Source: Candidatus Heimdallarchaeota archaeon (GTDB lineage: Archaea; Asgardarchaeota; Heimdallarchaeia; Heimdallarchaeales; Heimdallarchaeaceae). Taken from it: 32,000 nt of DNA. The position numbers and the translations under genes are program-made. Below are positions 1 to 17,644 of this stretch, piece by piece. The notes under the pieces were generated by a model, which saw only the letters and a program-made list of their open reading frames with translations, was not told the origin of the DNA and ran no database searches. Location of the stretch: the NCBI GenBank assembly GCA_030668875.1, contig DAOVER010000015.1, forward strand, positions 34,960 through 66,959. The letters are read 5' to 3'. Each line of letters starts with the position of its first letter. Position 1 is the stretch's first letter.

Positions 1-30
1 CATAATAATCCAAATACAGAATGTGATAAC

Positions 31-504
31 TTGAATAAGGGAAATGTTGAACAAGTTGGAAAACTTGTTGATGTAGATCCATCTGATATCAAACGAAAGA
101 ACAGGCGGAAGGTTACTGGGTATGTGATTCATTACTTTGTTCAAGTTTTTGTCTTTCTATTATCGTCATTATTTGGTTATTTATTCATTCTGTGGGAAAA
201 CGCAGATCAATCAAGTTATCCATATGGAACGTTCCCAAGACACCTCTATTTAGGTCCAATAAGTCTATATGGTCTATTTCAAGGTAATGCCATATTTACC
301 TATTTCCACAGAAAAAAACATAAGTTTCGCAACATTGAAGTATTTCCAGTAGTATTTGTAAATCTTATAGTCTCTCTCATAAGTTTCTTCATGATTTTTA
401 ACGCAATATACCAAGGCCCAGCTCCTACTTTAGGTGTTGCCGTTGCTTATGGTATTTATGAAAAGGAAAATCCAAGAAGTTTTAAAAAAGTAATGAAAAT
501 ATGA
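31..504 (+). CDS. 3-TM membrane protein, tandem paralog 1; putative radical SAM (splicease) substrate
   Basis: Shares with paralogs 2-5 the N-terminal VGxL motif, three hydrophobic helices, the YPY loop and a C-terminal AYGIY. TTG start; the frame is open back to base 1, so the start is not certain. Confidence 0.8.
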   Translation: MNKGNVEQVGKLVDVDPSDIKRKNRRKVTGYVIHYFVQVFVFLLSSLFGYLFILWENADQSSYPYGTFPRHLYLGPISLYGLFQGNAIFTYFHRKKHKFRNIEVFPVVFVNLIVSLISFFMIFNAIYQGPAPTLGVAVAYGIYEKENPRSFKKVMKI

Positions 505-518
505 AGGAGTTTACACTA

Positions 519-1013
519 ATGAACAAAGAAAAATTATCTAAGGTAGGAGCTTTAACCGAGTTAAAATCTGAGGATATAACTCCGAAAAAGATTAGAAAGA
601 ATTTAACTTTAGCTTATTATTATATTATACAGTTTGTATTCTTCATATTTTCAAGCCTTGTTGGAGTTGTTTTTGGTTTGTATGGCAACTCTCTTTCTTT
701 CTATCCCTATAATGCTTTTCCTCAAAGATATCTCTATGGATCAATAATATTAGCAATAACCCATGGAGGTAATTTTGGTCTATCTTACCAATTAAGTAGA
801 AAAAAAAGGTTGATGTTGAGCAAAAGTGAACCTAAGGTGTTATCTCCTGTCTATATATATCCGGCAATTGTTCTAAATTTTCTCCTATCAACAATAAGTC
901 TTTTCTCAATACATAACTTAGTAACCAACGGAAGTCCATTAACTATGAATACTCTTTATGGTGTATTTTCTAAAGGAAAATCTAATAGAATTAGGAAAAT
1001 CATGAAAAAATGA
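519..1013 (+). CDS. 3-TM membrane protein, tandem paralog 2; putative splicease substrate
   Basis: ORF track 501..1013. ATG 519 is preferred because AAGGAG lies at 504-509 and MNKEK aligns with the paralogs. Contains HGGNFG, YPY and C-terminal LYGVF. Confidence 0.85.
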   Translation: MNKEKLSKVGALTELKSEDITPKKIRKNLTLAYYYIIQFVFFIFSSLVGVVFGLYGNSLSFYPYNAFPQRYLYGSIILAITHGGNFGLSYQLSRKKRLMLSKSEPKVLSPVYIYPAIVLNFLLSTISLFSIHNLVTNGSPLTMNTLYGVFSKGKSNRIRKIMKK

Positions 1014-1027
1014 AAGAGGTTATAAAA

Positions 1028-1525
1028 ATGAATGAAAAGAAATTGAATGAAGTAGGGAAATTAACTGAAGTTGATTCTAAAGATATAACTCAAAACAAAT
1101 TCAAGAAGAAAATCACTTTAATGTATTTCTATTTTATTCAGCTTGGTTATTTAGCGATCTCAAGTTTAGTTGGATACTTATTTGGTTTGTATAAGAATGC
1201 GAATAACAGTTATCCATACAATGGATTTGATCAGAGTTACATTTTCGGACCACTTCTCGTAGCTATTATTCACGGAGGCAATCTTGGGATGTATTATGGA
1301 TTGAATAAAAGTAATAGATTAATTCTGAAAGACGGTACAAATGCTAAACCATTACCTTTCCATATCTATCCTGTTGTTTTTCTGAATATACTTCTATCTA
1401 TATTCTCCTTCTTCTTCATCTATAATGATATGATTAGTGGATATGTTTTCACAGCTACAACTGATTATGGTGTATATATTAGAAAGAAAGTTCAATTTCA
1501 TAATAAGCGAGCCAAAAATAATTGA
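1028..1525 (+). CDS. 3-TM membrane protein, tandem paralog 3; putative splicease substrate
   Basis: ORF track 1010..1525. ATG 1028 follows GAGGT (1016-1020). Contains HGGNLG, YPY, MYYGL and C-terminal DYGVY. Confidence 0.85.
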   Translation: MNEKKLNEVGKLTEVDSKDITQNKFKKKITLMYFYFIQLGYLAISSLVGYLFGLYKNANNSYPYNGFDQSYIFGPLLVAIIHGGNLGMYYGLNKSNRLILKDGTNAKPLPFHIYPVVFLNILLSIFSFFFIYNDMISGYVFTATTDYGVYIRKKVQFHNKRAKNN

Positions 1526-1559
1526 TGATAGACCAAAATAGATGTAAATATTGGAGGAG

Positions 1560-2075
1560 ATGAAGATAAACGAAAAAAAACTAGAAGAAGTTGGAGCATT
1601 AACAGAGGTAGGTTCTGCGGATATAACTAAGAATAAGATTAGAGCAAAAATCACCTTAGTTTATTATTATCTTATACAACTTGGATTTTTAGTTGTCTCA
1701 GGATTTATTGGATATCTATTTGGTATGAACAAGAATACTAGTTCTGCTTATCCGTATAGTGGATTCGATCAAAGTTACATTTTTGGGTCCATTTTTATAG
1801 TAATTGCCCATGGAGGAAATTTCGGTTTATCTTATGGATTGAGCAAGAAAGACAAATTAATTTTAAAGAAAGGGGCAAATATTAAACTATCTCCTTTCTA
1901 TATCTATCCTGCAGTTTCCTTAAATTTTGTTTTATCAATACTAAGCTTCTTAGCTATCTATAATCTGGTGTTTAGTGGGGATGTTTTCACAACTACAACA
2001 CGTTATGGAGTATATGAACAAAAGATATGCAAAATCTCGAAATGTAAATATAATACTAATAATAAAATGAGTTGA
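1560..2075 (+). CDS. 3-TM membrane protein, tandem paralog 4; putative splicease substrate
   Basis: ORF track 1551..2075 (TTG). ATG 1560 follows GGAGG. Contains HGGNFG, YPY, LSYGL and C-terminal RYGVY. Confidence 0.85.
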   Translation: MKINEKKLEEVGALTEVGSADITKNKIRAKITLVYYYLIQLGFLVVSGFIGYLFGMNKNTSSAYPYSGFDQSYIFGSIFIVIAHGGNFGLSYGLSKKDKLILKKGANIKLSPFYIYPAVSLNFVLSILSFLAIYNLVFSGDVFTTTTRYGVYEQKICKISKCKYNTNNKMS

Positions 2076-2080
2076 AATTT

Positions 2081-2584
2081 ATGAACGAAAAAAAGCTCGA
2101 AGAAATTGGGAAACTCACAGAAACGGATCCAAATGATTTAGCAATGAATAAAATCAAGAGAAAAATTTCTTTGATGTTTTATTATATTATACAATTTGTA
2201 TTTTTAATAACTTCAGGACTGATTGGGTTTATATTTGGTATTTATGAAAATGAGATAAATACTTATCCTTATGTTGGTTTTGATAAAAATTACATTATCG
2301 GACCTATTCTTGTAGTAGTAGTTCAAGGAGGGAATTTTGGCATGTCATATGGACTGAGAAAATCAAACAAATTAATATTAAAAAAGGGAACAGAGACTAA
2401 ACTTTCTCCTTTCTATATCTACCCTGTTGTTTTTCTAAATCTGATTTTATCGTTATTGCTGTTTTTATCTATCTATCAGATGTTTGTACCTAGATTTTCT
2501 CAAACGACATTCCCAATGTATGGCGTATTTATAAGAAAGGAATTAAAAAGTAAAAATGTATTAAGTAGGATTAATTATGTATAG
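2081..2584 (+). CDS. 3-TM membrane protein, tandem paralog 5; putative splicease substrate
   Basis: ORF track 2072..2584. ATG 2081 gives MNEKK like the paralogs. Contains QGGNFG, YPY, MSYGL and C-terminal PMYGVF. Overlaps the start of the radical SAM gene. Confidence 0.85.
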   Translation: MNEKKLEEIGKLTETDPNDLAMNKIKRKISLMFYYIIQFVFLITSGLIGFIFGIYENEINTYPYVGFDKNYIIGPILVVVVQGGNFGMSYGLRKSNKLILKKGTETKLSPFYIYPVVFLNLILSLLLFLSIYQMFVPRFSQTTFPMYGVFIRKELKSKNVLSRINYV

Positions 2585-3641
2585 ACTAGATTGTGCGATT
2601 TGGGAACTCACGTTAGCTTGTAATATGAATTGTAAACATTGTGGGTCAAGTGCTGGAAAAGCTAGAAAAGATGAGCTTTCTTTAGATGAGTGTTACGAAT
2701 TATGTAAAGAATTTGCAGATGAAGGATGTAACTTAGTTACATTGATGGGTGGGGAACCATTTGTTAGAAAAGATTGGAACCAAATTTCTTGGTGTATCAA
2801 AGATCTTGGAATGGACCTAGGGTATGTGACAAATGCACTACTAGTTCCTAATATCATTGAAGACTTAATTTTACTTGAACCACTGGTTGTCGGTATCTCT
2901 TTGGATGGCGTGAAAGAAACTCACGATAGTATCAGAATAGAAGGGTCATTTGATGCTGTAATTAAGGCATTAGATCTTCTCGAAGAAGCTGGTATTCAAA
3001 TAACTATAATTACTACTCTAAGCAAAACCAATTTCAAAGAATTACGAAAAATAAAAGAAATCATCCAAAATAGAAAAATAAATTGGCAGTTACAAATAGG
3101 TTTACCCTTTGGTAACTTTGATCCTGCGCTTACTTTGAGTTTAGAAGAGTTTTACGCTTCTGCAATGTTTATCACTGCTGAAGGAATTAAGAACAAATTC
3201 AGAGAAATGCCTGTAGTTGGAGCACATTGTTATGGGTATTATTCCCATCTTCTTCCAAACAACAAAAATTGGAAGGGATGCACAGCGGGTATAAATACGG
3301 TAGGAATAACTTCCGATGGTTCAATTGTAGGGTGTTTATCAATGGGCAACAATAAATTTATTGAGGGTAATGTCAGAGATCGTAGCTTCTCTGATATCTG
3401 GAATGATCCTAATTCCTTTGCATACAATCGGCAATTTACTAGAGATAACTTAGGTGAGAATTGTGTTAATTGCTTCTATGGTGAAACCTGCAAAGGTGGA
3501 TGTAATTCTTCTTCTCTTCATCTTACTCACACTTTTCATAACAATCCTTACTGTTTCAAGCAAATTGAAGAAAACCTCTTTGAGGTTAAGCCATACCGTA
3601 AGGAGATTAAGTGGTTAAAAGAAAAAGGAGTTAAGATCTGA
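2577..3641 (+). CDS. Radical SAM/SPASM peptide/protein maturase, PlpX-like (splicease family)
   Basis: WELTLACNMNCKHCGSSAG (CxxxCxxC), GGEP, ISLDG, WQLQ, GYY; SPASM C-x17-C...CxxC-x5-C-x3-C-x16-C ending in NNPYC. The radical SAM/SPASM call is certain. The splicease subfamily call rests on recalled PlpX motifs. Confidence 0.85.
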   Translation: MYRLDCAIWELTLACNMNCKHCGSSAGKARKDELSLDECYELCKEFADEGCNLVTLMGGEPFVRKDWNQISWCIKDLGMDLGYVTNALLVPNIIEDLILLEPLVVGISLDGVKETHDSIRIEGSFDAVIKALDLLEEAGIQITIITTLSKTNFKELRKIKEIIQNRKINWQLQIGLPFGNFDPALTLSLEEFYASAMFITAEGIKNKFREMPVVGAHCYGYYSHLLPNNKNWKGCTAGINTVGITSDGSIVGCLSMGNNKFIEGNVRDRSFSDIWNDPNSFAYNRQFTRDNLGENCVNCFYGETCKGGCNSSSLHLTHTFHNNPYCFKQIEENLFEVKPYRKEIKWLKEKGVKI

Positions 3642-4924
3642 TGATAAAACTAAATTTAGGCTGTGGTGTATTCTATAAACCTGGATATGTCAATATTGAT
3701 TTATCAGAAAAGGATGTAGCTGATGAGGTACAGAATGTTGCTGAACTTAAGTATGAATCTAATACTGTAGATGTCATAGAAGCATCCCATATTATCGAAC
3801 ACTTCGATATTATTCATCTTCCATACGTTCTTGCAGAATGGTTTAGAGTACTAAAACCAGATGGGGTTTTATACATCGAAACTCCAAATTTATTGAAATC
3901 AATAATTACTTTGAAGCCTAAAAACTATGAGTCAAAGAAACTCACATATCAATTTCTATTCGGTATTGATTATGAAGGAAATTCCCACAAAATGGGTTTC
4001 ACTTCTAAATTTTTAAAGAAATATCTTCTCTCTACTGGTTTTACAAAGATATCCAAACAAAAGCAAAGAAGCTTCAATTCAGAGAAGAGTATAAGGTACT
4101 GTTGCAGGAAACCTACTGATACTCCATTGACGAACAAAAAATTCTTTCTAAATCATTTAAGAACACTTATTAAAAATCAATTCGGTTTATCAGATACTCT
4201 CTTCTTAGATCATTGTGAGTCAAATTGTATGAGTTTTTTCAGAAACTTGAAACTAAAAAATGACATGGATAATTTGAACGATGAATTATGCTTAGAACTA
4301 ATAGCTTCCCTAACACTTTTTAGTCCCAAAGTAGCTAAAATCTTCATTAAGCTTTTCTCAGACAACTTGCCTGCTAACATTAATCTTGATATAATAGATT
4401 ATTTAGATTCAATAGATTTCTCATCTAGAATGTATGAGAGTTGGAAGAGTTGGATAAAAAATAAAGATGGAACTATGTACGCTGCATTTTATTTCTACAA
4501 TCACTGGACTTCAAAAATAAAGAAAAATTTGTTAGCAGAAACTAAAATTGATGTTATGTATGATTACATTGAATCATTAGATAAAAGTGATTACAATTAC
4601 TTCTGTTTTGAGCAAGTAAATATCTTATCTCTCAGGACATCTAATCAAGGTTTACGATACTTCTCCAACAAAAATTTTGAGAAAGCAAAGGAGTTATTTC
4701 TAGAAGCATTGAAGCTTCAACCCTATGATCCAGTTTCAAACTGGAATCTAGCTAGATTATCTAAAAATTCTGATAACAAAGAAAAGTTGCTCTTCTATTA
4801 CAAACAAGCAATTATGAATGTCTCATCTAGAAAGCACAAAAAGAAAATTAGAAAGGAAGTTAAACTTCTTAAGAACGGTAATAGTAAACTAATATCTTCA
4901 GAACCTATTCAAATTAGATTCTAG
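3641..4924 (+). CDS. Class I SAM-dependent methyltransferase with C-terminal TPR-like repeat
   Basis: KLNLGCG motif I, ASHIIEH, EWFRVLKPDG. TPR-like segment GLRYFSNKNFEKAKELFLEALKLQPYDPVSNWNLA. The start overlaps the rSAM stop (TGATG). Confidence 0.8.
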   Translation: MIKLNLGCGVFYKPGYVNIDLSEKDVADEVQNVAELKYESNTVDVIEASHIIEHFDIIHLPYVLAEWFRVLKPDGVLYIETPNLLKSIITLKPKNYESKKLTYQFLFGIDYEGNSHKMGFTSKFLKKYLLSTGFTKISKQKQRSFNSEKSIRYCCRKPTDTPLTNKKFFLNHLRTLIKNQFGLSDTLFLDHCESNCMSFFRNLKLKNDMDNLNDELCLELIASLTLFSPKVAKIFIKLFSDNLPANINLDIIDYLDSIDFSSRMYESWKSWIKNKDGTMYAAFYFYNHWTSKIKKNLLAETKIDVMYDYIESLDKSDYNYFCFEQVNILSLRTSNQGLRYFSNKNFEKAKELFLEALKLQPYDPVSNWNLARLSKNSDNKEKLLFYYKQAIMNVSSRKHKKKIRKEVKLLKNGNSKLISSEPIQIRF

Positions 4925-4996
4925 CTTTGGAGAAATGGAAGGTAACTAGTTTCAACTATCTCTAAATTAGATAGGAGATATATCAAATCAAATAAA

Positions 4997-5004
4997 CTTA
5001 TAAA
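4997..5004 (+). promoter_or_regulatory. Putative archaeal TATA box of the GRE operon
   Basis: CTTATAAA about 38 nt upstream of GTG 5042, in a 117-bp intergenic gap. A CTATCT-N7-AGATAG inverted repeat lies just upstream. Confidence 0.4.
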
Positions 5005-5041
5005 TCTTCTAAACAAAATCTCTCGAAAAGAGGGCATTTTA

Positions 5042-7441
5042 GTGACAAAAGCTATTAAGGACACAGATAACATCTGGCAACCATCTGAAAATCTTAGTCC
5101 GAGAATAAAAAGATTAAGAGATGAATATTTCTCCTTTTACGAACGTTATGATTATTATACGAATGAAGTTCGCCCTTACACAACAGGTACTTCTTGGGAT
5201 GATGTTTATAGTTATACTAACTGGGGAGCAGCTCCTGAGGGGCTTGACTTTTTTCCAGGTTATAAAGACAATCTACGCTCTTTAGCTGAAAAGGTTGAAT
5301 TTCCTAATGAGTTCTATAAATTATCTATTGCTGAAAGAAGAGCTCATTTCTTAAACAAAGTTGTTGAGAAAAATCTCCCTGCTATTATCCTTAAAGGTGA
5401 ATTAATTATAGGAAGCCATTTCAGTACAGCTTTAAGTAGAACTCTTACAAAATCTGAAACAAAGAAGTGGTCAAAAGATCAGAATAAATACTTCAAGGAG
5501 TTAGTTTTTAGATGTGAAACTGGGGAATTTAACTATGGTGCCATTCCTGGTCATCTAATTCCAAACTATGAAAAAGCTATAAAGATTGGTTTCTCTGGTA
5601 TTCAAAAAGAGTTGAAGGAATTAAGAAAATCTCCAAAGAACAAAGAACATTCTCAATGGCTTGATGCACTCATTGAGTCTTGTGAGGTCCCTAAACTGCT
5701 TGCTGAACGATATTCTAAGGAAGCAGAGAAACTAGCTAAACTGGAAAAGGACCCTAGTAGAAAATCTGAGCTTCTCTATCTCTCTCAAATTTGTAAAAAA
5801 GTTCCTTGGGAGCCTGCTGAATCTTTCTGGGAAGCTGTACAATCTCTTTGGTTTACTCATATTTTAGTTATGGCAGCTGAAAGCTATCCTGGACCAGGAA
5901 CAAGTCCTGGACGAATTGATCAGTATCTCTACCCTTACTTTAAACAAGATATTGACAACGGAAAAATAGATTATGATTTTGCAAAGGAGATCTTAAGTTG
6001 TTATTGGATTAAACACAATTATGCTTATGATTTTCAAGGACAAGTTGGAAATTCTCAAGGAATAAATTCTAGTTTTGGTCAATTAATTACTCTTGGTGGA
6101 ATAGATGAAAATCATGAGGATGCATCAAATGAATTAACACTTTTAATGTTGGATATAATCGATGAAATTAATCTTCTTGAACCCAAGCCTAATGTAAGAA
6201 TTCATGCGAAGACATCAGATAAAGTCGTGAAGAAAGTTGCTGAAATGATTGTTAAATCTCAAGGAAGTCCATTCCTGATGAATTTTGACGAAACAGCTAT
6301 GAAAGGACTGATTTGGCAAGGTATACCTGAGGACGAAGTTTGGAATTATGGTCCCGTTGGTTGTCTAGAAAATACTATGATTGGTAATGATGTTTCCGGA
6401 ACCGTTGATGTTAATGTTAACATTGCTAAGGCAGTTGAACTAACATTGTTCAATGGTAAAGATCTCCAAACAAAAAAGCAAGTAGGACCAAAAACAGGAA
6501 ATCCAAAGAAATTCAAAACATTTGATCATTTTAAAGATGCATACATTAAGCAACTCACTGCCTTGCTAGATAGAGCTATTGACGCAAATAATCATGCTGA
6601 TATGATAAGAGCAGTTTACGAGCCTGTTCCGTATGTTTCTCTATTAATCGATGGATGTGCAGAATCTGGCAAAGATTGTAGAGCTGGAGGAGCTAAATAT
6701 AATTTCATAACGGTCGAAGCTTTAGGTTTAGCAAATGTCGCTGATTCTCTAGCTGCTGTTAAAAAACTTGTTTATGAAGAAAAAAGAATAACAATGGATC
6801 ATCTTCTAAAAGCTCTTAAGAAAAATTATGAAGGATATGAAGAAACTAGACAACTACTGCTAAATCATGCTCCTAAGTATGGTAATGATGATGATTATGT
6901 AGATAGTATCGCACGAGAGATTTCTCAATATTGGGGGATCTATGTTTCAACAAAAACTTCCCCTATTACTAACAGACAGTATCGTGGTGGTTATCTTTCT
7001 TGGAATTATTTCATTTCTTTTGCACCCAAAACTGGAGCTCTTCCAGATGGTCGTCCAAGAGGAGCTTACTTATCGGGTGGTGTTGGACCAACTCAAGGTG
7101 TTGATACCAGTGGTCCAACAGCTTCTATAATGAGTGTTGGTAAACTTGGCGTGGAAGTACAACCTAATGGATCATCTCATACAATGTCATTTAGCCCAGC
7201 AAGTCTTCGAGATGAGGAACATGTAGAAAAACTCATTGCACTTCTTAGGGCCTATGGGCATGTTGGGGGAACTGCGTTACAAACAAATGTTGTCAGTATT
7301 GATACACTCAAGAATGCTCAAACTGATCCAGAGAAATATAGAAACCTCTTAGTACGAGTTACAGGATATAATGCGTATTTCACAACCTTAGGAAAAGAAC
7401 AACAAGATGAGATAATTGCAAGAGAATCTCATAAAGTCTAA
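5042..7441 (+). CDS. Glycyl radical enzyme (PFL2/dehydratase-like superfamily), substrate unknown
   Basis: 799 aa; SPGRIDQYLYPY; single-Cys loop VGCLEN; C-terminal glycyl motif LLVRVTGYNAYF. Confidence 0.92.
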   Translation: MTKAIKDTDNIWQPSENLSPRIKRLRDEYFSFYERYDYYTNEVRPYTTGTSWDDVYSYTNWGAAPEGLDFFPGYKDNLRSLAEKVEFPNEFYKLSIAERRAHFLNKVVEKNLPAIILKGELIIGSHFSTALSRTLTKSETKKWSKDQNKYFKELVFRCETGEFNYGAIPGHLIPNYEKAIKIGFSGIQKELKELRKSPKNKEHSQWLDALIESCEVPKLLAERYSKEAEKLAKLEKDPSRKSELLYLSQICKKVPWEPAESFWEAVQSLWFTHILVMAAESYPGPGTSPGRIDQYLYPYFKQDIDNGKIDYDFAKEILSCYWIKHNYAYDFQGQVGNSQGINSSFGQLITLGGIDENHEDASNELTLLMLDIIDEINLLEPKPNVRIHAKTSDKVVKKVAEMIVKSQGSPFLMNFDETAMKGLIWQGIPEDEVWNYGPVGCLENTMIGNDVSGTVDVNVNIAKAVELTLFNGKDLQTKKQVGPKTGNPKKFKTFDHFKDAYIKQLTALLDRAIDANNHADMIRAVYEPVPYVSLLIDGCAESGKDCRAGGAKYNFITVEALGLANVADSLAAVKKLVYEEKRITMDHLLKALKKNYEGYEETRQLLLNHAPKYGNDDDYVDSIAREISQYWGIYVSTKTSPITNRQYRGGYLSWNYFISFAPKTGALPDGRPRGAYLSGGVGPTQGVDTSGPTASIMSVGKLGVEVQPNGSSHTMSFSPASLRDEEHVEKLIALLRAYGHVGGTALQTNVVSIDTLKNAQTDPEKYRNLLVRVTGYNAYFTTLGKEQQDEIIARESHKV

Positions 7442-7455
7442 AGAGCAAATCTCTA

Positions 7456-8409
7456 ATGTCAGTAAACCAAAACCTTTCAGGTAGAGTATTAAACATCCAA
7501 CGATTCTCAACAGAAGATGGACCTGGTATCAGAACAACCATTTTTCTTCAAGGTTGTGCGTTACGATGTAAATGGTGTCAGAATCCTGAAAGTTGGTATT
7601 TAAAACCTCAATTAGTATGGTACGATGATAGATGTATAGCAGCTAAAGATTGCTTATTAGCATGTCCGGAGGATGCACTAGACCTTACAGCTGAAGGAAT
7701 GGTTATTGATAGAGAAAAATGTACGGGTTGTGGGAAATGTGTAGTAGCATGTCCAACAAAATCATATGAAATTATGGGGAAAGAAATGTCTGCAACAGCA
7801 GTCATTAAACAAGCTTTACGTGACAAAACATTCTATGAACAATCTGAAGGTGGAGTGACAATTTCAGGAGGGGATCCTCTCTTTCAGCAGAAATTTAGTC
7901 TGGAAATACTTAACTCCCTAAAACAAGAAGGAATTCACACTGCAATTGATACAACAGGTTTTTCTAAACCAGAAGAATTTCAGCAATTGGTGGATCTTTC
8001 TGATTTAATACTTCTAGACTTCAAACAGATGAACCCTAATTTACACAAAGAATTTACAGATGTAGATTTAGATAAAATTCTTACAAACGCTAAATGGTTG
8101 GGTGTACAAAAAAAGAAAGTTTGGATAAGAACTCCAATTATTCCCGAGTATACAGATCAAGAAGAGAATATAATTGAAATTGCTAAATTCATAAAAGAGA
8201 ATATGAGTGATGTTGTTGAAAGATGGGATCTACTAACTTACAATAATCTATGTGTTTCAAAATGGAAAAGATTAGATATTTGTTATGAATTAGAACATTT
8301 ACCTTTAGTAACAACATCAAAAATCCAGAAACTTGCAGACTTAGCAAAAGAGTCTGGTGTGCCTGTCACTTGGACAGGAGTCTTACAAAAAAATGAAAAT
8401 GATGGATAA
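7456..8409 (+). CDS. Glycyl radical activating enzyme with ferredoxin-like insertion
   Basis: RFSTEDGPGIRTTIFLQGCALRCKWCQNPE; insert CIAAKDCLLAC and CTGCGKCVVAC; GGVTISGGDP. Confidence 0.92.
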   Translation: MSVNQNLSGRVLNIQRFSTEDGPGIRTTIFLQGCALRCKWCQNPESWYLKPQLVWYDDRCIAAKDCLLACPEDALDLTAEGMVIDREKCTGCGKCVVACPTKSYEIMGKEMSATAVIKQALRDKTFYEQSEGGVTISGGDPLFQQKFSLEILNSLKQEGIHTAIDTTGFSKPEEFQQLVDLSDLILLDFKQMNPNLHKEFTDVDLDKILTNAKWLGVQKKKVWIRTPIIPEYTDQEENIIEIAKFIKENMSDVVERWDLLTYNNLCVSKWKRLDICYELEHLPLVTTSKIQKLADLAKESGVPVTWTGVLQKNENDG

Positions 8410-8417
8410 GAGTAAAA

Positions 8418-9209
8418 ATGAAATTAACAGAAAAAGCAAAAGAAGCATTTAATATCTTTGAAGCTGCTAAATTTATGGCAACTAAAGATGAGGCTAACAT
8501 CCCTAATATTGCTATGATCGCAACCTTAAGTCCATGGGGTGAAGATGAACTAATCTTTGGAACATTTTTAATGTGGCAGACTGAGAAGAACCTTCGAAGT
8601 GGTTCTCCTGTTACTGCTAGTGTTATGACAACTAACTTTGATAGTTATCAAGTAAAGGGAGAATTTCTAGGTTTCGAGAAGCAAGGTGAAAAATTTGATA
8701 CTTTGAGTAATTTAGATCTTTTTAGATATTCAGCTATCGGTCTTCTTAGATCAGTTGGAACTATTGCAGTTAAAGAAGTTAAACCTCTCAATTTAAGTTT
8801 GTTTTCCGTAGCACGAGAGTGGATGTCAACAAAATTTGGTGGTAAAAGACCAAAAGATTTTCCGGAAGGTAAAAAAGCTAATCCAATAGTTGTTAAGAAC
8901 ACAAGCGTCCTGATGGGTGCCAAATATCTTACCGTCATAAGAGACAACGAATTAGAACAGTTTCCAGTTCTTGGGATGAGACCCGTAGAAGATTATTTAG
9001 CGATTAGAGCTGATTTACCTTTAGAAGTAGGAGAAAATGTTGCAGTATCTTCTTTCAACCTTGGTCTTAAAGCATATCAGTTTAAAGGAACATATCAAGG
9101 TGTAAAAAGAGCTAGAGGTATCACTTTAGGTTACGTAAAAGTAGATAGAATACTTTCACAGACTCCTCCTTTAGTTTCTAAAGAGGTTCCTTCAGATAAT
9201 TTCAATTAG
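8418..9209 (+). CDS. Tandem pyridoxamine-5'-phosphate-oxidase-like (FMN split-barrel) domain protein
   Basis: Two related halves (IPNIAMIATL...TEKNL...SYQVKGEFLG and ...KAYQFKGTYQG). Lies 8 bp after the activase. Confidence 0.65.
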   Translation: MKLTEKAKEAFNIFEAAKFMATKDEANIPNIAMIATLSPWGEDELIFGTFLMWQTEKNLRSGSPVTASVMTTNFDSYQVKGEFLGFEKQGEKFDTLSNLDLFRYSAIGLLRSVGTIAVKEVKPLNLSLFSVAREWMSTKFGGKRPKDFPEGKKANPIVVKNTSVLMGAKYLTVIRDNELEQFPVLGMRPVEDYLAIRADLPLEVGENVAVSSFNLGLKAYQFKGTYQGVKRARGITLGYVKVDRILSQTPPLVSKEVPSDNFN

Positions 9210-9223
9210 AAGAAGAAGGAATT

Positions 9224-10345
9224 TTATTTCCTTTTTCTTAAAACTGTAACAATTGCAGCTAATGCAATAAACCCTAGAATAACAGATAAGGTTCCATATG
9301 AAGCGCCAGAAACATCATTTATAATTGTAAAGACCTTGCTGGATACCATGACAGTGGGAATTGTAATAGCTTCGTAATCCCAACTAAAGTGAGGTTTCAT
9401 CCCAATTGCTGCAAAATATACGTAATTGTTGCCAGCATTAAGTGGAAAGGTATACTCATTTTTTAGTGAGAATGCTCCATCATTTGCCCACCAAAAGGAA
9501 ATGCCAGGTCCAAGGTGATGTAGACTCTGAAACACTGCATATCCGTCATCTTCAACTAGAGCTAGTGGATAGGTTGAGTAATTGTAATCAGCTTCCACAT
9601 AAGCATCATCAACCGATCTAAGTAATGTTTGAGAAAGAGTACTAACATCACTATCATGTAGTTCTGTTGTGACACGAATATCGGTCCAAGTCCATTCAAA
9701 GTGATTTACTAGTTGATCTGCATCAGTTGGATAGGATCTAACATTACAAACATTCGATGCCTGTTTTCTTTCAGGTGGATTGTCTATTGGGTCTTCTGAA
9801 ACATAGAAGTATAAATTATCTTTAGCCCATTCCCAACTGAAGGTTGTGTGATAGATATCAGAAACAACCTCTCCTGCGATAATTGTCAGCAAATGCCAAC
9901 CTTCTTCTAGAGTTACTGCTATGCCTTGAGTTGTGTTTATTCCAGAATATTGACCTATATTTGAAATTCCTAGGTCAGTATTGTCTAAATATAAATTGAA
10001 ATTGCCTTGTAACCTAGTAACATTATACTCACCAAATTCATTAGGTTCATTGAAATACCATTGATTAACATAAGATTCTTCCCCGCTATCAGTAAATAAA
10101 GTGTCATCAGCAATATCTATGTCAAAACCAAACCATATATCGTCATCTGTCGTATAGACTTGCTCATTAGCCATTATTGATCTGTTAAATTCTATAAACA
10201 TTGAAGGACCGAGTTCATAAGTAAAAATTGGTGCAATCTTCAAAGTAACTGGAACAAGTTTCGTTTCTTGTTCTCCAATTATAGTTAAAGCAGAAAATGT
10301 TGATGCCAGAATCAAAACAAGTAAAACAAAATTTTTCTTATTCAT
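9224..10345 (-). CDS. Secreted, C-terminally anchored surface protein of unknown function
   Basis: N-terminal signal peptide, acidic beta-rich body, C-terminal TM followed by RKRK. Confidence 0.7.
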   Translation of the reverse strand: MNKKNFVLLVLILASTFSALTIIGEQETKLVPVTLKIAPIFTYELGPSMFIEFNRSIMANEQVYTTDDDIWFGFDIDIADDTLFTDSGEESYVNQWYFNEPNEFGEYNVTRLQGNFNLYLDNTDLGISNIGQYSGINTTQGIAVTLEEGWHLLTIIAGEVVSDIYHTTFSWEWAKDNLYFYVSEDPIDNPPERKQASNVCNVRSYPTDADQLVNHFEWTWTDIRVTTELHDSDVSTLSQTLLRSVDDAYVEADYNYSTYPLALVEDDGYAVFQSLHHLGPGISFWWANDGAFSLKNEYTFPLNAGNNYVYFAAIGMKPHFSWDYEAITIPTVMVSSKVFTIINDVSGASYGTLSVILGFIALAAIVTVLRKRK

Positions 10346-10769: not shown

Positions 10770-12317
10770 TTAACTTCTTTTTTTACTTCTTCTTGGAAGT
10801 CTTAATACTAAAAGGAATAGAAATAAAATCATAATAGAAGGTACAAAAAGAATGTTTGCTATAACAGTGTACTCTTCATCAATTTTATCTGAAAGCGGAT
10901 ATGTGTCTGCTGAGTTACTAGCTCCATCTATCTCATAATCTCCACTTTCAAAGTCACTCCAGAAATTTCCCTCTAAGGTTGTAGGATTGTACCATAGATT
11001 TTCTTCACCATCATCATATGCTTGACTCTCACCCATTTGGTTATTACTGTAAAATTCATTATGATCTATTTGATTCCAATAACTCTCATAATCGATATAT
11101 ACTCCATAATCCCGATTATGATGGAAGTAATTGTAATTAATTGAAATATTATTACTATTCATTAAATGAAGACCATTTCCATCGTTATAAGATATGGAAT
11201 TCTTTTCAATCATATTTTCTGAACATTTATATAAGAAGATACCATTTAAACCATTTTGAAGAATTGAATTCCGAGATATCAAGGTACTTACTATACCTTC
11301 TGCACTGATTCCTTTATATCTACTCTCTTCGATTTTATTTGAATAAATAAAAGCCCCAATAATCTCTTTTAAAGATAAACCAATATTATTACTTTGTGAA
11401 ATGTTATTAAACTGTATTATCGGATAATTAGCAGTTTCATAAAAGATACTTTCTACAGACTCAATCAATATTCCAACTTCAGTTTTCGAAATACCATTTT
11501 TACTTATAAGTAAAGTGTCACAATTTATAGCACGTATACCAACATCACCAGCTGAAAAAATTATATTAGATACAACTTTACATCCTTCAGAGTATTCTAT
11601 ATCTATTGAATTATCATCTAAATTATAGTACATATTGTTAAGAAATGAAAAATGATTGTTATAAATTAATGTCCGGTCAGAGTGACTAGTTAGTATTCCA
11701 TTATCACACAAGAAAAACTGATTATTATATATATGACAATCATCTGAATGACTAATCATAACTGGATATAGACACTTAGAGAAAGTATTGTTAGTTAAAT
11801 AACAAAACTGAGAATAATAATTGTAAATACCAGCCTCACATCTAGAGAAAATATTCCATTCCAATTTAACACGATATGAATTTTCTACTCTTATCCCATT
11901 TATCATCGAATATGAGTTACCATTGAAAGTGTTATTGACAATGTTTATTGTTTCATTTAGAATGTCTTTGATTTTTATTCCATAAATACCTTCATAAAAA
12001 GTACAGTTACGTATTTCGATGTGTTTAGTTGTTTTATAAATGTAAATAACATTCTCAGTTGAAGGTTGTCCTGTAAAAATGATATTTTCAATTAAGAAAG
12101 GATTTTCAATAGTTCCATTTCCTGTTAAACTAAGTAAATCTGGATCTGAATCAGAGGTGATTAAAATCTCATTTATTGAATCTAGATTTGGATTTACATT
12201 CAATTGCACTAATGAAGAAGAAGTATTAATCAGAGCAAAGAAAAATAACGAAAATAATAAACATATTAGAAAAGTAGTTTTCAATATATTCTTTTGATTG
12301 ATACTTTTCCACTTCAT
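10770..12317 (-). CDS. Right-handed parallel beta-helix (NosD-like) surface protein with C-terminal TM anchor
   Basis: GNGTIENPFLIEN cap, repeated I.NN.F...GI motifs, EGNFWSD...D.YPL, C-terminal TM plus RRSKKRS. Confidence 0.85.
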   Translation of the reverse strand: MKWKSINQKNILKTTFLICLLFSLFFFALINTSSSLVQLNVNPNLDSINEILITSDSDPDLLSLTGNGTIENPFLIENIIFTGQPSTENVIYIYKTTKHIEIRNCTFYEGIYGIKIKDILNETINIVNNTFNGNSYSMINGIRVENSYRVKLEWNIFSRCEAGIYNYYSQFCYLTNNTFSKCLYPVMISHSDDCHIYNNQFFLCDNGILTSHSDRTLIYNNHFSFLNNMYYNLDDNSIDIEYSEGCKVVSNIIFSAGDVGIRAINCDTLLISKNGISKTEVGILIESVESIFYETANYPIIQFNNISQSNNIGLSLKEIIGAFIYSNKIEESRYKGISAEGIVSTLISRNSILQNGLNGIFLYKCSENMIEKNSISYNDGNGLHLMNSNNISINYNYFHHNRDYGVYIDYESYWNQIDHNEFYSNNQMGESQAYDDGEENLWYNPTTLEGNFWSDFESGDYEIDGASNSADTYPLSDKIDEEYTVIANILFVPSIMILFLFLLVLRLPRRSKKRS

Positions 12318-13509: not shown

Positions 13510-14433
13510 ATGTCTACAAAACAAGAGCATCAGCAGATTACTTATGTCTGTAATACTTGCACAAAAAAAAGAATTATACTATTTCCAGCAGGAATGGAAA
13601 TTAAAGTTGATTCAAGAGGCTTAAGTGAGTTTGTAGACATTCACAAATGCAAAGATGATAAACTGATAGCACTAATCTTGTTTGTTGATGGTCAATACGC
13701 AGTCAGATCTCAGGTACCAATAAGCAGCGAGGAAGCTACAAAATCTATTCCAGACGATCTAGCAAGTATGCCTGTACCAGTTCCAAGAAAGTCAGGGCTA
13801 GCAAAAATAAAAATTAACCCTCCTAAAAGCTTCAAAGCTTCTGTTATTAATGAGTTAATTATTAAAGATAGATTACGACAACTTCAATATTCATTGGAAC
13901 CAAAAAAAACTGATGATGATCGCGATATAATGATTGATTCTCAATTCTGTTTTGTTCATATCCGCGCTAATGTTTCCAAGAAAACTGATTTAGTAAAGGC
14001 AAAAAGATGGTTCAAAGAAATAGCAAACTTGCTTGAACAAACAGTACATATCAACGATGAAGTTTTTACTTTACTTTTGGAATATCTTGAAGAAAAATTA
14101 AAGAAGGATGATTTCATCCAAGAATTCAAAGAATTAATGATACTCTTAAATGGACCAGTAACAGTTCCTATCTCTACTAAAAAGTCGATTAAAGATTTTG
14201 ATAGTAGATGGGGGAGCATAGATGGAAAGTTAACTCTAGGAGACTATAATAAGTATAATAAACTATTATTAGCTTGCTTAGATAACAAACAGAAAACACT
14301 TCTTGATATCTTCTCTCTTATGCAAGGACGCATGAAATTATCCTATTTCCTCTCTGCATTTTATGACCTATTCTGTAACGCTTTTATGAAACTAGAAAAA
14401 CCACAATTCTTCGCAACTTCCGATTTTGAATAG
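13510..14433 (+). CDS. Hypothetical protein with N-terminal putative Zn-binding module
   Basis: 307-aa ORF; CNTC...DIHKC...LFVDGQYAVRSQ. No recognised family. Confidence 0.6.
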   Translation: MSTKQEHQQITYVCNTCTKKRIILFPAGMEIKVDSRGLSEFVDIHKCKDDKLIALILFVDGQYAVRSQVPISSEEATKSIPDDLASMPVPVPRKSGLAKIKINPPKSFKASVINELIIKDRLRQLQYSLEPKKTDDDRDIMIDSQFCFVHIRANVSKKTDLVKAKRWFKEIANLLEQTVHINDEVFTLLLEYLEEKLKKDDFIQEFKELMILLNGPVTVPISTKKSIKDFDSRWGSIDGKLTLGDYNKYNKLLLACLDNKQKTLLDIFSLMQGRMKLSYFLSAFYDLFCNAFMKLEKPQFFATSDFE

Positions 14434-14459: not shown

Positions 14460-16370
14460 TTAATTTTCACTTATATTTTTCCTCCTCCTAATCCAAATAA
14501 TAGCAATTATACAAAGAAGTGGTAAGTAGAATGAGATATTTGCATATGCTATAATTATATTGTATCCTGCAAATTCTAGCCATTCATTAGCTTCTGCAAG
14601 ATCATAATTATATTTGATAATATCTTTATAATAATGGTAAGTATTCGCGGGTAAAATCATACTATGACTGATAATGTATTCCCCATTGTGAACAACATGG
14701 TTGATATCTTTTCTATCAATAGCATAACAAATAGCTTTTCTCACAGCAACTGCTTTAGTATAATCTTCTTTACCTTCTGCGGTAAGAAACACAAAGTTAT
14801 CAACACCACCTACGAAAGGTCTCTGAAGATTAAAGGCCAGAAAAGTCATTGAATTCCTTGGATAGCTGAAAACAGAGAATCTTTGATCATTTTGCATTTG
14901 TTTTCTTTCAGATGGGAAGAACATTAAACCAGTCCAGTCCAATTTGCCAGCCTTGAATTCAGCTAATTCTTCAGTAATATCAGATATAACACGTACGTTG
15001 AATGTTTCAATATCTAGATCTTGCGTTGTTCCGTCAATTGCACCAACATACATCCAGTATGGGCTAGCTTGGAGAACAGTAACGGAGTTTTTGATATAAT
15101 GATCTAACATGTATTTTCCACAACCAAATGCGGAAGTACTATAGTATAACCATGGATTAGTGTCTAGAATACCAGTATAGAAACCAGTACATTCAGCTCC
15201 ACCAGAAGTGTATGAGACAGTGGGATTTGAGGAATTCAAGAAGAATTCGGGTAGAATTTCCCAAGGTAGTCTGGCCCAAAAGTCGACGTATTGTTCAATT
15301 TCTGGAGTATATGGGTTTCCATCAATCTCAATGTGGAAGGATAGTTCATCTACTGGGTCAACATAGCAAGCTGAAATCCAGTTATGATAAGATGGACTTT
15401 CACTAACGATTGCGTTTGCCCATGCAAGGTAGGTAAAGACTGCGTCTTTGGCAGTGACTTGTTGGTTTTCACCATTACTAACTTCACCATTTTTTAGACC
15501 TACCATTAAAGGAGTGGTAGTTGGGTCAAGTGGGTCAGAGCTGGCATCTCTGCCTGTTACGTCAAATGATGGGTTCCACCATACATCATCTCTCATAGTA
15601 AATTCGTAATGGAATTCGTCAATTTGTTTCCAATCTGAAACTAATGAGGTTTTAAGTGGGACAAAATCAGGACTCCAACCAACAATTGATTCAGCCATTA
15701 AGCTGAATATGAAAGAGCTGGATGTATCATCTGTTTGTAATGGGTTCAAATCTCTCCAATAAGCATCAGCTATGTTGAATTCAGTTAATGAATCTTGACC
15801 TTCATGAAGACCACTATATTCGATGTAAGGTAAGGAGTCAATTATTCCCCAGCGCACATCATAACCGAGTGTGTTTGACCATGTAGCAACGTATGATCTC
15901 GGTGAGAACAATGGTAGAATATGAACTATCTTATCCATAACTAATTGCTGCCAGTTATAGTAGTGTTGCTGTTTTTGTTCAAGATCAGTTATGGTAACAC
16001 CTTCAATAAGCATATTTTCACTAATGTTTCCATATGGTATCTCTCTAGGTATTTTTACAGACAAACCATCATAAGAATTAAATGGATTTTGATTTCCTGA
16101 CAGTCCTATTATGTACATATCATAATCTTGTGTAAGCAGTAAACATCCAACGAACACTGTCCATTCTTCGACTTTAACTTCTACTTCAATACCGATTTCT
16201 CTAAGATACTGAGCTATGTAAAGACCATAGTCAGGTCTTACTCCTCCCCCGTTAGTTTTTAGAACTAAATTACAATGAGGTTCAATACTCGCTTGAACAC
16301 TAACAACTGAATAGAGAATTGACACCGAAAGTAAACTAACAAAGACTAGCGTATTTGTTTTTTTACACAT
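14460..16370 (-). CDS. Family-5 (Opp/Dpp-type) extracellular solute-binding protein, circularly permuted, C-terminal TM anchor
   Basis: LREIGIEVEV, DLNPL, YEFTMRDDVWW, VTAKDAVFT, FKAGKLD, LAFNLQRP, VRKAICYAIDR, YDLAEANEWLEFAGY; TM plus RRRK. Confidence 0.85.
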   Translation of the reverse strand: MCKKTNTLVFVSLLSVSILYSVVSVQASIEPHCNLVLKTNGGGVRPDYGLYIAQYLREIGIEVEVKVEEWTVFVGCLLLTQDYDMYIIGLSGNQNPFNSYDGLSVKIPREIPYGNISENMLIEGVTITDLEQKQQHYYNWQQLVMDKIVHILPLFSPRSYVATWSNTLGYDVRWGIIDSLPYIEYSGLHEGQDSLTEFNIADAYWRDLNPLQTDDTSSSFIFSLMAESIVGWSPDFVPLKTSLVSDWKQIDEFHYEFTMRDDVWWNPSFDVTGRDASSDPLDPTTTPLMVGLKNGEVSNGENQQVTAKDAVFTYLAWANAIVSESPSYHNWISACYVDPVDELSFHIEIDGNPYTPEIEQYVDFWARLPWEILPEFFLNSSNPTVSYTSGGAECTGFYTGILDTNPWLYYSTSAFGCGKYMLDHYIKNSVTVLQASPYWMYVGAIDGTTQDLDIETFNVRVISDITEELAEFKAGKLDWTGLMFFPSERKQMQNDQRFSVFSYPRNSMTFLAFNLQRPFVGGVDNFVFLTAEGKEDYTKAVAVRKAICYAIDRKDINHVVHNGEYIISHSMILPANTYHYYKDIIKYNYDLAEANEWLEFAGYNIIIAYANISFYLPLLCIIAIIWIRRRKNISEN

Positions 16371-16618: not shown

Positions 16619-17644
16619 TCAATTAACCTTTTCTTCTAATAAGGTGACTTGATCCCTATACTTCTTCCATTTCTTTGATAAGAAAACAAGAATTAAACAT
16701 GGAATTACATTTACTGTAAGTAGAAGTGCTCCATAAATGAGAAACTCACCATCATAAAAACAATGGACCATAATTAGATATCCTGCAGCATTTAACCATT
16801 CAAATGCCAAATCTGCATTTCTATTATAAATCGGTAAATCATTATTTATCCAATAACTCTCATATGGTAGAATAATGGAATCAATAATCGATGCTTCCCC
16901 ATCAAAGATTTGGTAATTTATATCCTCTCGGTCTATAGTATAGCATATTGTTTTACGTACTCCACTTGCCACAGAATTAAGTTCCTTTCCAGGCGCTGTT
17001 ATATATACATAATTGTCACAACCTCCAACAAAGGGTCTTTGCAAGTTAAACCCAAGATAAATAGATTGATTGTAAGATTCATGAACTAAAGTAACTATTG
17101 GGAATAAGCAGACTAGCTTATCCATAGCAAGATCTTGGAATTCAAGTAAATAGTCTCTCTTCTTAATTGGATTTGACTCATTTGTTGCATTAACTAACAA
17201 ATTGTTTGCTAGCATCACATAAGGTATAGTTAGATTCAGATTTGTTGGATTATTATAATTACTTACATTCCAAAAAAGCTGTTCTGTTATTTCAGAAGTA
17301 TTCAGACTTATGAGAAATAAATCATAATCATGGGTAACATTCAGTTGAGAACTGAATATTCCTCTTTCTACTACTTTCATTTCAACTTCAATTAGTATTG
17401 ATCTAAGATTCTTAACAATAATTAATCCAATATCAAGCAATCTATCTTCAGCTGTAGTTTTGAGAACTAAATTGCATATAGGTTCAGGATAGTTTGGACC
17501 TTCATTGAAAATTATTGGTGGAGGGTTCCTTTTCTTCCAGTGCATTATGAAAAATCTTGTTGAAAAAACTAAATCTGTTAAAATTAAAATAATCATCAAA
17601 CTAGAAACAACTATAACTATAGTTTTCTTTGTCTTATTTTTCAT
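16619..17644 (-). CDS. Internally deleted family-5 SBP derivative (single lobe), TM segments at both ends
   Basis: Matches the N-terminal ~130 aa and C-terminal ~100 aa of the 14460..16370 protein, joined at LFPIVTLVHESYNQSIYLGFNLQRP. The ORF is intact. Confidence 0.75.
   Translation of the reverse strand: MKNKTKKTIVIVVSSLMIILILTDLVFSTRFFIMHWKKRNPPPIIFNEGPNYPEPICNLVLKTTAEDRLLDIGLIIVKNLRSILIEVEMKVVERGIFSSQLNVTHDYDLFLISLNTSEITEQLFWNVSNYNNPTNLNLTIPYVMLANNLLVNATNESNPIKKRDYLLEFQDLAMDKLVCLFPIVTLVHESYNQSIYLGFNLQRPFVGGCDNYVYITAPGKELNSVASGVRKTICYTIDREDINYQIFDGEASIIDSIILPYESYWINNDLPIYNRNADLAFEWLNAAGYLIMVHCFYDGEFLIYGALLLTVNVIPCLILVFLSKKWKKYRDQVTLLEEKVN

Follow-up and report, generated by a model that had tools for sequence, protein, structure and literature searches.

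The locus analysed here raises the question of what a radical S-adenosylmethionine (SAM) enzyme with a SPASM domain acts on, and by what chemistry, when the genes beside it encode small membrane proteins, arrayed in tandem, whose C-terminal tails have a Tyr-Gly pair in common. The locus lies in a 32,000-nucleotide stretch of DNA (hereafter the window) from Candidatus Heimdallarchaeota archaeon (assembly GCA_030668875.1, contig DAOVER010000015.1, positions 34,960 to 66,959 of the forward strand). A sequence-only reading of the window had proposed that the radical SAM (rSAM) enzyme is a splicease related to PlpX, which would excise tyramine from X-Tyr-Gly motifs in the membrane proteins and leave an α-keto-β-amino acid in their backbone. 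Our comparisons indicate that the tails of the membrane proteins are very probably the substrate of the rSAM enzyme together with a methyltransferase encoded directly downstream, so that the proposed relation between enzyme and membrane proteins is well supported. We lean slightly towards a fuller reading, in which the rSAM/SPASM enzyme, a methyltransferase fused to tetratricopeptide repeats (TPR) and the membrane substrates would form a three-part Asgard maturation cassette with splicing chemistry at the tyrosine; tyramine excision is our leading guess for that chemistry. The gene set, the conservation of the motif, the co-occurrence of the genes, the natural gene fusions and the family placement of the enzyme are observed directly.

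The five open reading frames (ORFs) of the array that the sequence-only reading described are present, each with the invariant Tyr-Gly pair at the nucleotide position it gave, and the array does overlap, by 8 bp, a gene in which both Radical_SAM and SPASM are confirmed by Pfam (Table 1). That reading nevertheless undercounted the array, which comprises seven paralogs; a search of the window's own assembly shows that the first two precede the window. The sequence-only reading had also recognized the membrane proteins and the rSAM enzyme as a cassette while overlooking the conserved methyltransferase-TPR partner and a conserved N-terminal motif. Within the window the paralog genes are packed by 4-bp overlaps with a single 25-bp gap, the rSAM gene begins inside the last paralog, and the methyltransferase-TPR gene begins at the last base of the rSAM gene, the whole being an operon of overlapping genes. 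The window's other copies are only 30-34% identical to its first copy, and the range is 30-44% when all seven are counted, yet the Tyr-Gly pair is invariant and falls in the same alignment column (Y140, G141), about 8 residues past the last hydrophobic helix. The Asgard origin suspected from the sequence is borne out by named homologs, which come from metagenome-assembled genomes (MAGs) of Heimdallarchaeaceae or Heimdallarchaeota, and by the presence of the DNA in marine-sediment metagenomes: positions 1-5000 of the window are matched in four DNA runs, all from one marine-sediment study, and no RNA run is listed as matching that segment.

Table 1. Genes of the array and its two enzymes (coordinates in the window unless prefixed)
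Feature	Coordinates	Strand	Description
First two paralogs of seven	C22:33658-34170 and C22:34376-34816		Both LYGVY, intact; just upstream of the window
Paralog 3 of 7	31..504	+	157 aa from TTG 31; N-terminal helix motif; three predicted helices; tail A-Y-G-I-Y at 445-459
Paralog 4 of 7	501..1013	+	170 aa; tail L-Y-G-V-F at 954-968; 4 bp shared with paralog 3 gene
Paralog 5 of 7	1010..1525	+	171 aa; tail D-Y-G-V-Y at 1463-1477
Paralog 6 of 7	1551..2075	+	174 aa; tail R-Y-G-V-Y at 2001-2015
Paralog 7 of 7	2072..2584	+	170 aa; tail M-Y-G-V-F at 2516-2530; source of the AlphaFold2 model
Radical SAM/SPASM enzyme	2577..3641	+	354 aa; PlpX-like superfamily, Asgard clade; CX3CX2C at residues 15-22; full SPASM cysteine set
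Methyltransferase-TPR	3641..4924	+	427 aa; class I SAM methyltransferase, about residues 1-160; all-helical/TPR 166-411; C-terminal P-I-Q-I-R

The tail motif of the array is more than chance. Among the 5795 ORFs of at least 60 amino acids in the whole genome, only the seven array ORFs carry YG[VIT][YFI] in a tail that follows a hydrophobic segment; a scan for this pattern among the final 45 residues, no more than 25 residues from a hydrophobic 19-mer, returned 10 ORFs, and in the three from outside the array the pattern lies inside the hydrophobic segment itself. A profile search for the membrane family retrieved 58 proteins. When the motif columns were counted in 61 full-length members of the family, with the seven paralogs included, Tyr was present in 61/61, Gly in 58/61 (two have Ser and one Asp), Val in 57/61 and Tyr or Phe at the last position in 61/61, and thus the conservation of the pair in homologous proteins, on which the sequence-only reading depended, holds. 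The residue X that precedes the Tyr is R in 18 members, M in 15, L in 9, D in 8, A in 5 and K in 3. It is fixed within orthogroups, however: Asp in 4/4 proteins of the copy-5 type, Arg or Lys in 19/20 of the copy-6 type and Met in 5/5 of the copy-7 type. That X varies between paralogs but is constant within each orthogroup suggests that its identity is selected separately in each paralog.

The membrane family and the enzyme also occur together. Among 23 other genomes of the genus, the rSAM enzyme occurs in nine and the membrane family in nine; eight have both, 13 have neither, and the two discordant genomes hold contig-end fragments only. Every membrane-family match in these genomes is on the contig that carries the rSAM gene or on a contig abutting one. 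Had the membrane proteins usually occurred without the rSAM enzyme, the idea of a joint system would have been undermined; in the genus no membrane-family gene was found away from it.

Beyond the genus, the rSAM enzyme is found in 104 of 399 genomes of the Asgard phylum, and its relatives number 1542 in 90% clusters, with names from Heimdall-, Loki/Prometh-, Hel- and Hod-archaeota and from Thermoplasmatota. We read the architecture of the cassette in 39 Asgard loci. In nearly all of them a homolog of the methyltransferase-TPR gene abuts the rSAM gene, and within a few kb, on one side or the other, are genes for small membrane proteins that have Y-[G>S,N,D,A]-[VT]-[YFI] immediately after the last hydrophobic helix. 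The locus of the cultured Promethearchaeum syntrophicum (L054) has three such tails, KYGVY, DYDVY and LYNVY, while the one-helix proteins of loci L039-L042 end in tails such as RYGTIKPQDF and KYGSISPNDF, and that of L038 has Y-A-S. The substrate families of the different lineages have unrelated cores but a common N-terminal motif, K-L-x-E-[VI]-G-x-L-x-[VI]-x-x-x-D-[IL]. A hidden Markov model (HMM) built from the first 34 residues of the Heimdall family only was run on 526 ORFs from the loci of other lineages, and 20 of its top 22 matches were ORFs with a Tyr tail; in the window's own genome it matched the seven array genes and nothing else. The shared N-terminal motif and the Tyr tail together suggest that the substrates are bipartite, with a leader and a core resembling those of precursors of peptides that are ribosomally synthesized and modified post-translationally (RiPPs), and with a membrane domain between them. 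We note that in one locus (L029 of genome G126, positions 2521-2718) the rSAM gene adjoins a gene for a 65-aa Pro/Lys-rich peptide that is devoid of a hydrophobic helix and ends in P-S-Y-G-V-Y-S-R-K; there the methyltransferase gene is about 0.6 kb upstream of the rSAM gene and not adjacent to it.

The methyltransferase appears to be an integral component of the system. Its N-terminal domain matches Pfam Methyltransf_11 (2.1e-7), and all of 34 homologs keep G7, G9, D20 and D28, which correspond to the glycine-rich SAM loop and the acidic residue after strand 2; with these features of the Rossmann-type fold the protein belongs to the class I SAM-dependent methyltransferases. Its AlphaFold2 model (pLDDT 87.2) matched many solved class I methyltransferases and none specifically, and the fold searches with this model returned generic class I enzymes only, with no clue to the methyl acceptor. 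The 61 relatives of the protein are archaeal and are encoded on the same contigs as relatives of the rSAM enzyme. Furthermore, there are natural fusions in which a homologous methyltransferase domain, with or without TPR (E 2e-30 and 2e-22), is joined to an rSAM/SPASM enzyme (P0200, 728 aa; P0213, 834 aa), and one protein, P0187, in which an rSAM enzyme is fused to C-terminal TPR repeats; all three are cluster representatives from clades neighbouring the Asgard clade. The fusions and the co-conservation of the two genes argue that the methyltransferase is part of the machine. The C-terminal P-I-Q-I-R is conserved in the methyltransferase-TPR family, and the aligned stretch of P0213 is about 40 residues before its rSAM domain, which suggests a docking or linker role for this sequence. 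We also note that at the locus encoding P0200 (L069, fusion gene at 3501-5687) a second, stand-alone rSAM/SPASM gene is directly upstream of the fusion, and that three tandem soluble paralogs of 107-176 aa (positions 783-2177), also upstream of the fusion gene, end in P-G-T-x-Y-A-V-F. The P-G-T-x-Y-[GA] context of these paralogs is that of the one-helix substrates of L038-L042, with Ala for Gly and no membrane helix.

The rSAM enzyme itself is a member of the radical SAM/SPASM superfamily (Pfam Radical_SAM 1e-22, SPASM 1.9e-9), and C15, C19, C22, C218, C235, C253, C296, C299, C305, C309 and C326 are invariant or nearly so in 50 homologs. Searches with TIGR04103 and TIGR03913 find no other PlpX-like rSAM enzyme in the genome. 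The motifs that the sequence-only reading had taken to be shared with PlpX along the whole length of the enzyme are mostly generic rSAM/SPASM features common to the superfamily. Its description of the enzyme as PlpX-like was right in that TIGR03913 and TIGR04103 are the nearest curated families, both of which adjoin X-Y-G peptides, but the enzyme is a member of neither. We take IPR026482 to be equivalent to TIGR04103, that is, to the PlpX family. PlpX has been assigned to IPR026482 (PMC11002830). Other NCBIfam models score lower (TIGR04133 138, AhbD 127, MftC 125, WgkB 111, StsB 111 and DynA 75.5 bits). When 1.84 billion cluster representatives were searched with the enzyme, 364 proteins were found at E <= 1e-30. 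In a quick IQ-TREE phylogeny of 90 rows, which has long outgroup branches and in which a single TIGR04103 anchor from Nostoc stands for the validated spliceases, an 82-row clade (SH-aLRT 89) joins the Asgard clade (97) and a PlpX/TIGR03913 clade (100), and leaves outside it TIGR04133, MftC, TIGR04053 and the genome's other rSAM enzymes; the Nostoc TIGR04103 protein falls in with the TIGR03913 members (100). Clustering away from the spliceases had been named as an outcome that would tell against the proposal. The tree goes both ways on this point, in that the enzyme falls within the same superfamily clade as the spliceases but in a distinct Asgard clade.

As for the features that accompany the curated families, an adjacent X-Tyr-Gly precursor, which goes with TIGR04103, is found in 7/7 paralogs and in 58/61 members of the membrane family, whereas the locus has neither a Nif11/NHLP-type leader nor a small PlpY-like ORF of the kind seen in type I TIGR04103 systems. 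The DUF1843 match (Pfam) and GDL motif that go with TIGR03913 are absent from the membrane proteins. The PlpA3 core AVAAMYGVVFP, deduced from splice tags (PMC10533398), was used as a degenerate DNA pattern to reach PlpX in a collection of genome contigs and had no match. We then looked at what true members of TIGR04103, TIGR03913 and TIGR04133, taken from annotated plasmids, are encoded beside. The Nostoc TIGR04103 gene adjoins a Nif11 precursor with I-A-L-Y-G-L-P and has a small ORF just downstream, the place of PlpY in type I systems; TIGR03913 genes of Azospirillum and Burkholderia adjoin DUF1843 or DUF1842-DUF1843 proteins with LYG, PYG and MYG; TIGR04133 genes adjoin lipoproteins with EYG or CYG beside the lipobox; and unnamed relatives of the enzyme in Agathobacter and at L068 adjoin small ORFs with MYGT, KYGAIP and KYGVIKPKD. 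Since a partner with Tyr-Gly lies beside all of these enzymes, it is the feature that unites the superfamily. At L068 (positions 1826-2101) the partner is a 91-aa signal-peptide protein encoded directly upstream of the rSAM gene for P0206, with sites K-Y-G-A-I-P and K-Y-G-V-I-K-P-K-D, the second of which resembles the Asgard Y-G-T-I-K-P-Q-D-F tails. A plasmid of Aureibacter tunicatorum (L067, positions 1671-4441) encodes three DUF1843 peptides, two with Y-A and one with Y-G, an rSAM enzyme that clusters with TIGR03913 and, next to it, a class I methyltransferase; we rejected the latter as a homolog of the methyltransferase in the window (E 1.1), and the pairing of rSAM enzyme and methyltransferase there is at most convergent.

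The membrane proteins have no Pfam or NCBIfam match above cut-off, and matches to PalH, MSC_0624 and other families were rejected as they fall far below the cut-offs. The AlphaFold2 model of copy 7 (mean pLDDT 69.6) has a short N-terminal helix at residues 3-16 and long helices at 20-62, 72-97 and 113-138, followed by a disordered tail, residues 139-170, that holds the motif. We predicted a complex between the tail of copy 7 (residues 128-170) and the rSAM enzyme, the latter with a 50-row alignment, SAM and three clusters. The score was 0.53 against 0.00 for the best of three controls, which counts as weak support: in calibration the mark was reached by 58/80 solved complexes and 2/110 mismatched pairs, but at scores of 0.60 or less it was reached by just 7/80 solved complexes and by both mismatches. 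The prediction runs share at least 76% of their contacts, with a partner pLDDT of at least 41. We regard this model as a small addition to the case for the tails as substrate.

How might such a cassette work? We infer the use of the tails as substrate, the chemistry, the order of the steps and the biological role from the comparisons above. In the mechanism that we propose, a cytoplasmic rSAM/SPASM enzyme and the methyltransferase-TPR protein would act on the tandem array of small membrane substrates. The leader-like N-terminal helix motif would dock on the enzyme pair, by analogy with the activating helix that PlpY or the RhaA leader provides (PMC11414181). The flexible tail could then enter the active site of the rSAM enzyme, where a hydrogen would be abstracted at the invariant Tyr, and the paralog-specific X (Arg/Lys, Asp, Met, Leu or Ala) would give rise to a set of ketoamides that are tethered to the membrane and differ in their side chains. 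The methyltransferase might then methylate some position, or help to hold the substrate. Known spliceotides inhibit proteases (PMC11626197), and it is therefore a reasonable guess, by analogy, that the panel serves as a set of membrane-tethered protease inhibitors.

Several of our observations weigh against splicing as the chemistry. The best NCBIfam match of the enzyme, TIGR03913, scores 200.4 bits (199 when searched on the genome) under a cut-off of 591.75, and the second, TIGR04103, scores 189.8 bits (188.7 on the genome) under a cut-off of 725. Twenty relatives sampled among the best 150 clusters always had one or the other of these as their best family, with none at the cut-off, which suggests that the curated families cover small parts of a superfamily that is large and otherwise uncurated. 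In the tree the Asgard clade stands apart from, and is not nested in, the PlpX/TIGR03913 clade, the sole clade with a member of the family to which tested spliceases belong. A methyltransferase partner is absent from the splicease systems described so far, certain paralogs and lineages have S, N, D or A in place of the Gly at +1, and the strongly conserved residues at +2 (V/T) and +3 (Y/F/I) would also suit a cross-linking enzyme. Topology poses a further difficulty. In an analysis by hydropathy and the positive-inside rule the tail is basic, and so are the N-terminal segment and the loop that joins helices 2 and 3; three spanning helices would leave the N-terminus on one side of the membrane and the tail on the other, and the rule then predicts the tail to be outside the cell. 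An enzyme that depends on iron-sulfur clusters and SAM cannot act outside the cell, and so modification of an external tail would have to precede insertion into the membrane. The tail is predicted to be external in the one-helix families and cytoplasmic in the two-helix families. Thus, either helix 2 of the window's proteins does not span the membrane, or modification occurs earlier than insertion.

Some of these observations favour the same architecture and the same substrates with another Tyr-directed reaction, whose product the methyltransferase would cap: a C-C or ether cross-link in Y-G-V-[Y/F] (such as a three-residue cyclophane that joins the Tyr ring to the β-carbon at +2), an epimerization or a hydroxylation. 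We consider this possible but rather unlikely. A position +1 that tolerates G, A, S, N and D, a nearly always β-branched residue (V/T/I) at +2 and an aromatic or hydrophobic residue at +3 fit an aromatic-X-X cross-link as well as they fit X-Y-G; the placement of the Asgard clade would suit a different reaction, as would an identity to bacterial relatives of just 33-40%, and the SPASM cross-linking enzymes WgkB, StsB and DynA are among the family matches. The cross-linking maturases score far under TIGR03913 (200 bits) and TIGR04103 (190 bits), however, and one of these two is the best match of every relative sampled. In addition, Y-G-V occurs in PlpA3, whose MYGVV site was deduced from splice tags (PMC10533398), as well as in the DUF1843 partners of TIGR03913, and a paralog-specific X would be expected of a displayed ketoamide side chain but not obviously of a cross-link downstream of the Tyr. 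As the motif resembles the C-terminus of MftA, we also considered an MftC-like reaction on G-V-Y as the principal explanation; we rejected it because +3 varies (Y, F, I or L) and is not C-terminal, and the invariant residue is the first Tyr.

It is improbable, in our estimation, that the membrane proteins are not substrates but partners of the enzymes (an anchor, an exporter or an immunity protein), with a small molecule, a lipid or an unlinked protein as the substrate and a structural role for the Tyr motif. In favour of this reading, the candidate substrates are known from sequence and the complex prediction gives weak support only; moreover, the conserved polar residues within the helices of the membrane family (Q41, N88, N123 and S127) suggest an independent function for the membrane core. 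What speaks against such a role is that families with unrelated cores, among them the one-helix Thor-type and three-helix Heimdall/Loki-type proteins, the L029 peptide and the soluble L069 proteins, have nothing in common but the N-terminal motif and the Tyr tail. The motif is in a tail that AlphaFold2 predicts to be disordered, tandem multi-copy precursors with a variable residue beside an invariant site are typical of RiPP-like substrates, and the relatives of the enzyme in the curated families all pair with X-Y-G peptides. Although some common sequence is to be expected of tandem paralogs, it is highly improbable that the motif was simply inherited through recent duplication beside an rSAM gene that is there by accident. 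The paralogs are 30-53% identical, yet the Tyr is kept in all 61 proteins, and both motif and adjacency persist over phylum-level divergence with non-homologous cores; the linkage to the enzyme in the genus, the matches of the N-terminal HMM and the genome-wide scan for the tail pattern already contradict this explanation.

If splicing does occur here, a conserved archaeal form of it that acts on membrane proteins would carry the chemistry over to the regular proteins of a cell and into the Asgard lineage, with a methylation step added. To our knowledge, experimental evidence of backbone splicing to β-amino ketoamides is so far confined to engineered proteins and to peptide natural products from bacteria. 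We raise, as a tentative and rather doubtful proposition, that in Asgard and other archaea a splicease-type enzyme acts on membrane proteins to create a genome-encoded panel of membrane-tethered electrophilic ketoamides that a dedicated partner further methylates. If this were true, the panel could serve as surface-displayed protease-directed warheads or as covalent docking sites, and it would give both membrane proteins and archaea their first natural case of backbone splicing, present also in P. syntrophicum, a cultured relative of the ancestors of eukaryotes. The set to be tested is small: seven substrates and two enzymes here, and three substrates and two enzymes in P. syntrophicum. Even if the chemistry is different, the cassette would be an uncharacterized protein-modification system in roughly a quarter of the Asgard genomes sampled. 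What the window adds is the Heimdall version, whose array is the largest (seven three-helix copies), together with the N-terminal motif that the substrates share, an X specific to each orthogroup and the fusions of methyltransferase and rSAM enzyme.

Other genes in the window deserve brief mention. Directly downstream of the cassette and on the same strand (5042-8409) are genes for a glycyl radical enzyme of 799 aa (PFL-like 6e-147, Gly_radical 1.5e-27) and for its 317-aa activating enzyme, which carries ferredoxin-type inserts. On the minus strand are two NosD/right-handed β-helix proteins (10770-12317 and 17765-19420) and, in the same neighbourhood, two SBP_bac_5 solute-binding-like proteins (14460-16370 and 16619-17644). 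Pfam gave no match for three ORFs, at 8418-9209, 9224-10345 and 13510-14433.

It is useful, lastly, to set the cassette beside systems that are already known. In the literature covered, which does not include the primary splicease survey, we found no description of a splicease-like system in archaea or for membrane proteins; a passing remark holds that 'bacterial and archaeal genomes' contain thousands of spliceotide and graspetide clusters (PMC11626197). CrpC and CrpA of Methanococcus voltae (PMC13692751) also pair an archaeal rSAM/SPASM enzyme with an adjacent protein-sized substrate whose N-terminal domains aid engagement, but there the links are Cys-directed thioethers, the substrate is Cys-rich and soluble, the enzyme has its own RiPP recognition element, and our searches did not return it as a close relative. 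The TIGR04133/TIGR04134 radical SAM/lipoprotein pairs of Bacteroidales and spirochaetes, the third-best match of the enzyme, resemble the Asgard cassette in having a membrane-anchored partner with X-Y-G near the anchor; they differ in falling outside the 82-row clade, in being anchored through an N-terminal lipid and not through transmembrane helices and in having no methyltransferase, and are themselves uncharacterized. TIGR03913, the 'GDL motif peptide-associated radical SAM/SPASM maturase' and best curated match, is closer: its partners are tandem paralogs, some of about 200 aa, with X-Y-G-V or X-Y-A near a flexible segment, and the Aureibacter relative has an adjacent, non-homologous class I methyltransferase. 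TIGR03913 partners are soluble, however, with the motif N-terminal to the DUF1843 helix domain, and the enzymes, at about 480-520 aa, have extra termini.

The spliceotide systems, of which the type I PlpX/PlpY/PlpA and PcpXYA (Pleurocapsa) and the binary RhaX/RhaA, RcsX and RasX (Rheinheimera) are examples, differ from the Asgard cassette in several respects. The score of the Asgard enzyme is less than a third of the family cut-off, and the enzyme belongs to a separate archaeal clade; its candidate substrates are membrane proteins of 110-190 aa and not peptides with Nif11/NHLP-type leaders, with the motif in a C-terminal tail after a transmembrane helix and with the Gly sometimes replaced by A, S, N or D; and an obligatory methyltransferase-TPR protein, sometimes fused to the enzyme, takes the place of PlpY. 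Nevertheless, the likenesses are considerable. The spliceotide enzymes are rSAM/SPASM proteins of the same superfamily, and their substrates, like those here, are encoded beside the enzyme, often in multiple copies, and have an invariant Tyr with Gly after it and a variable X in front (PMC11414181, PMC11626197). Spliceases tolerate protein-sized substrates (PMC10533398). They act at XYG and need an activating helix that is supplied by PlpY or by the leader (PMC11414181, PMC10533398), and just as this helix lies outside the core, so the Asgard substrates carry their own conserved N-terminal helix motif.

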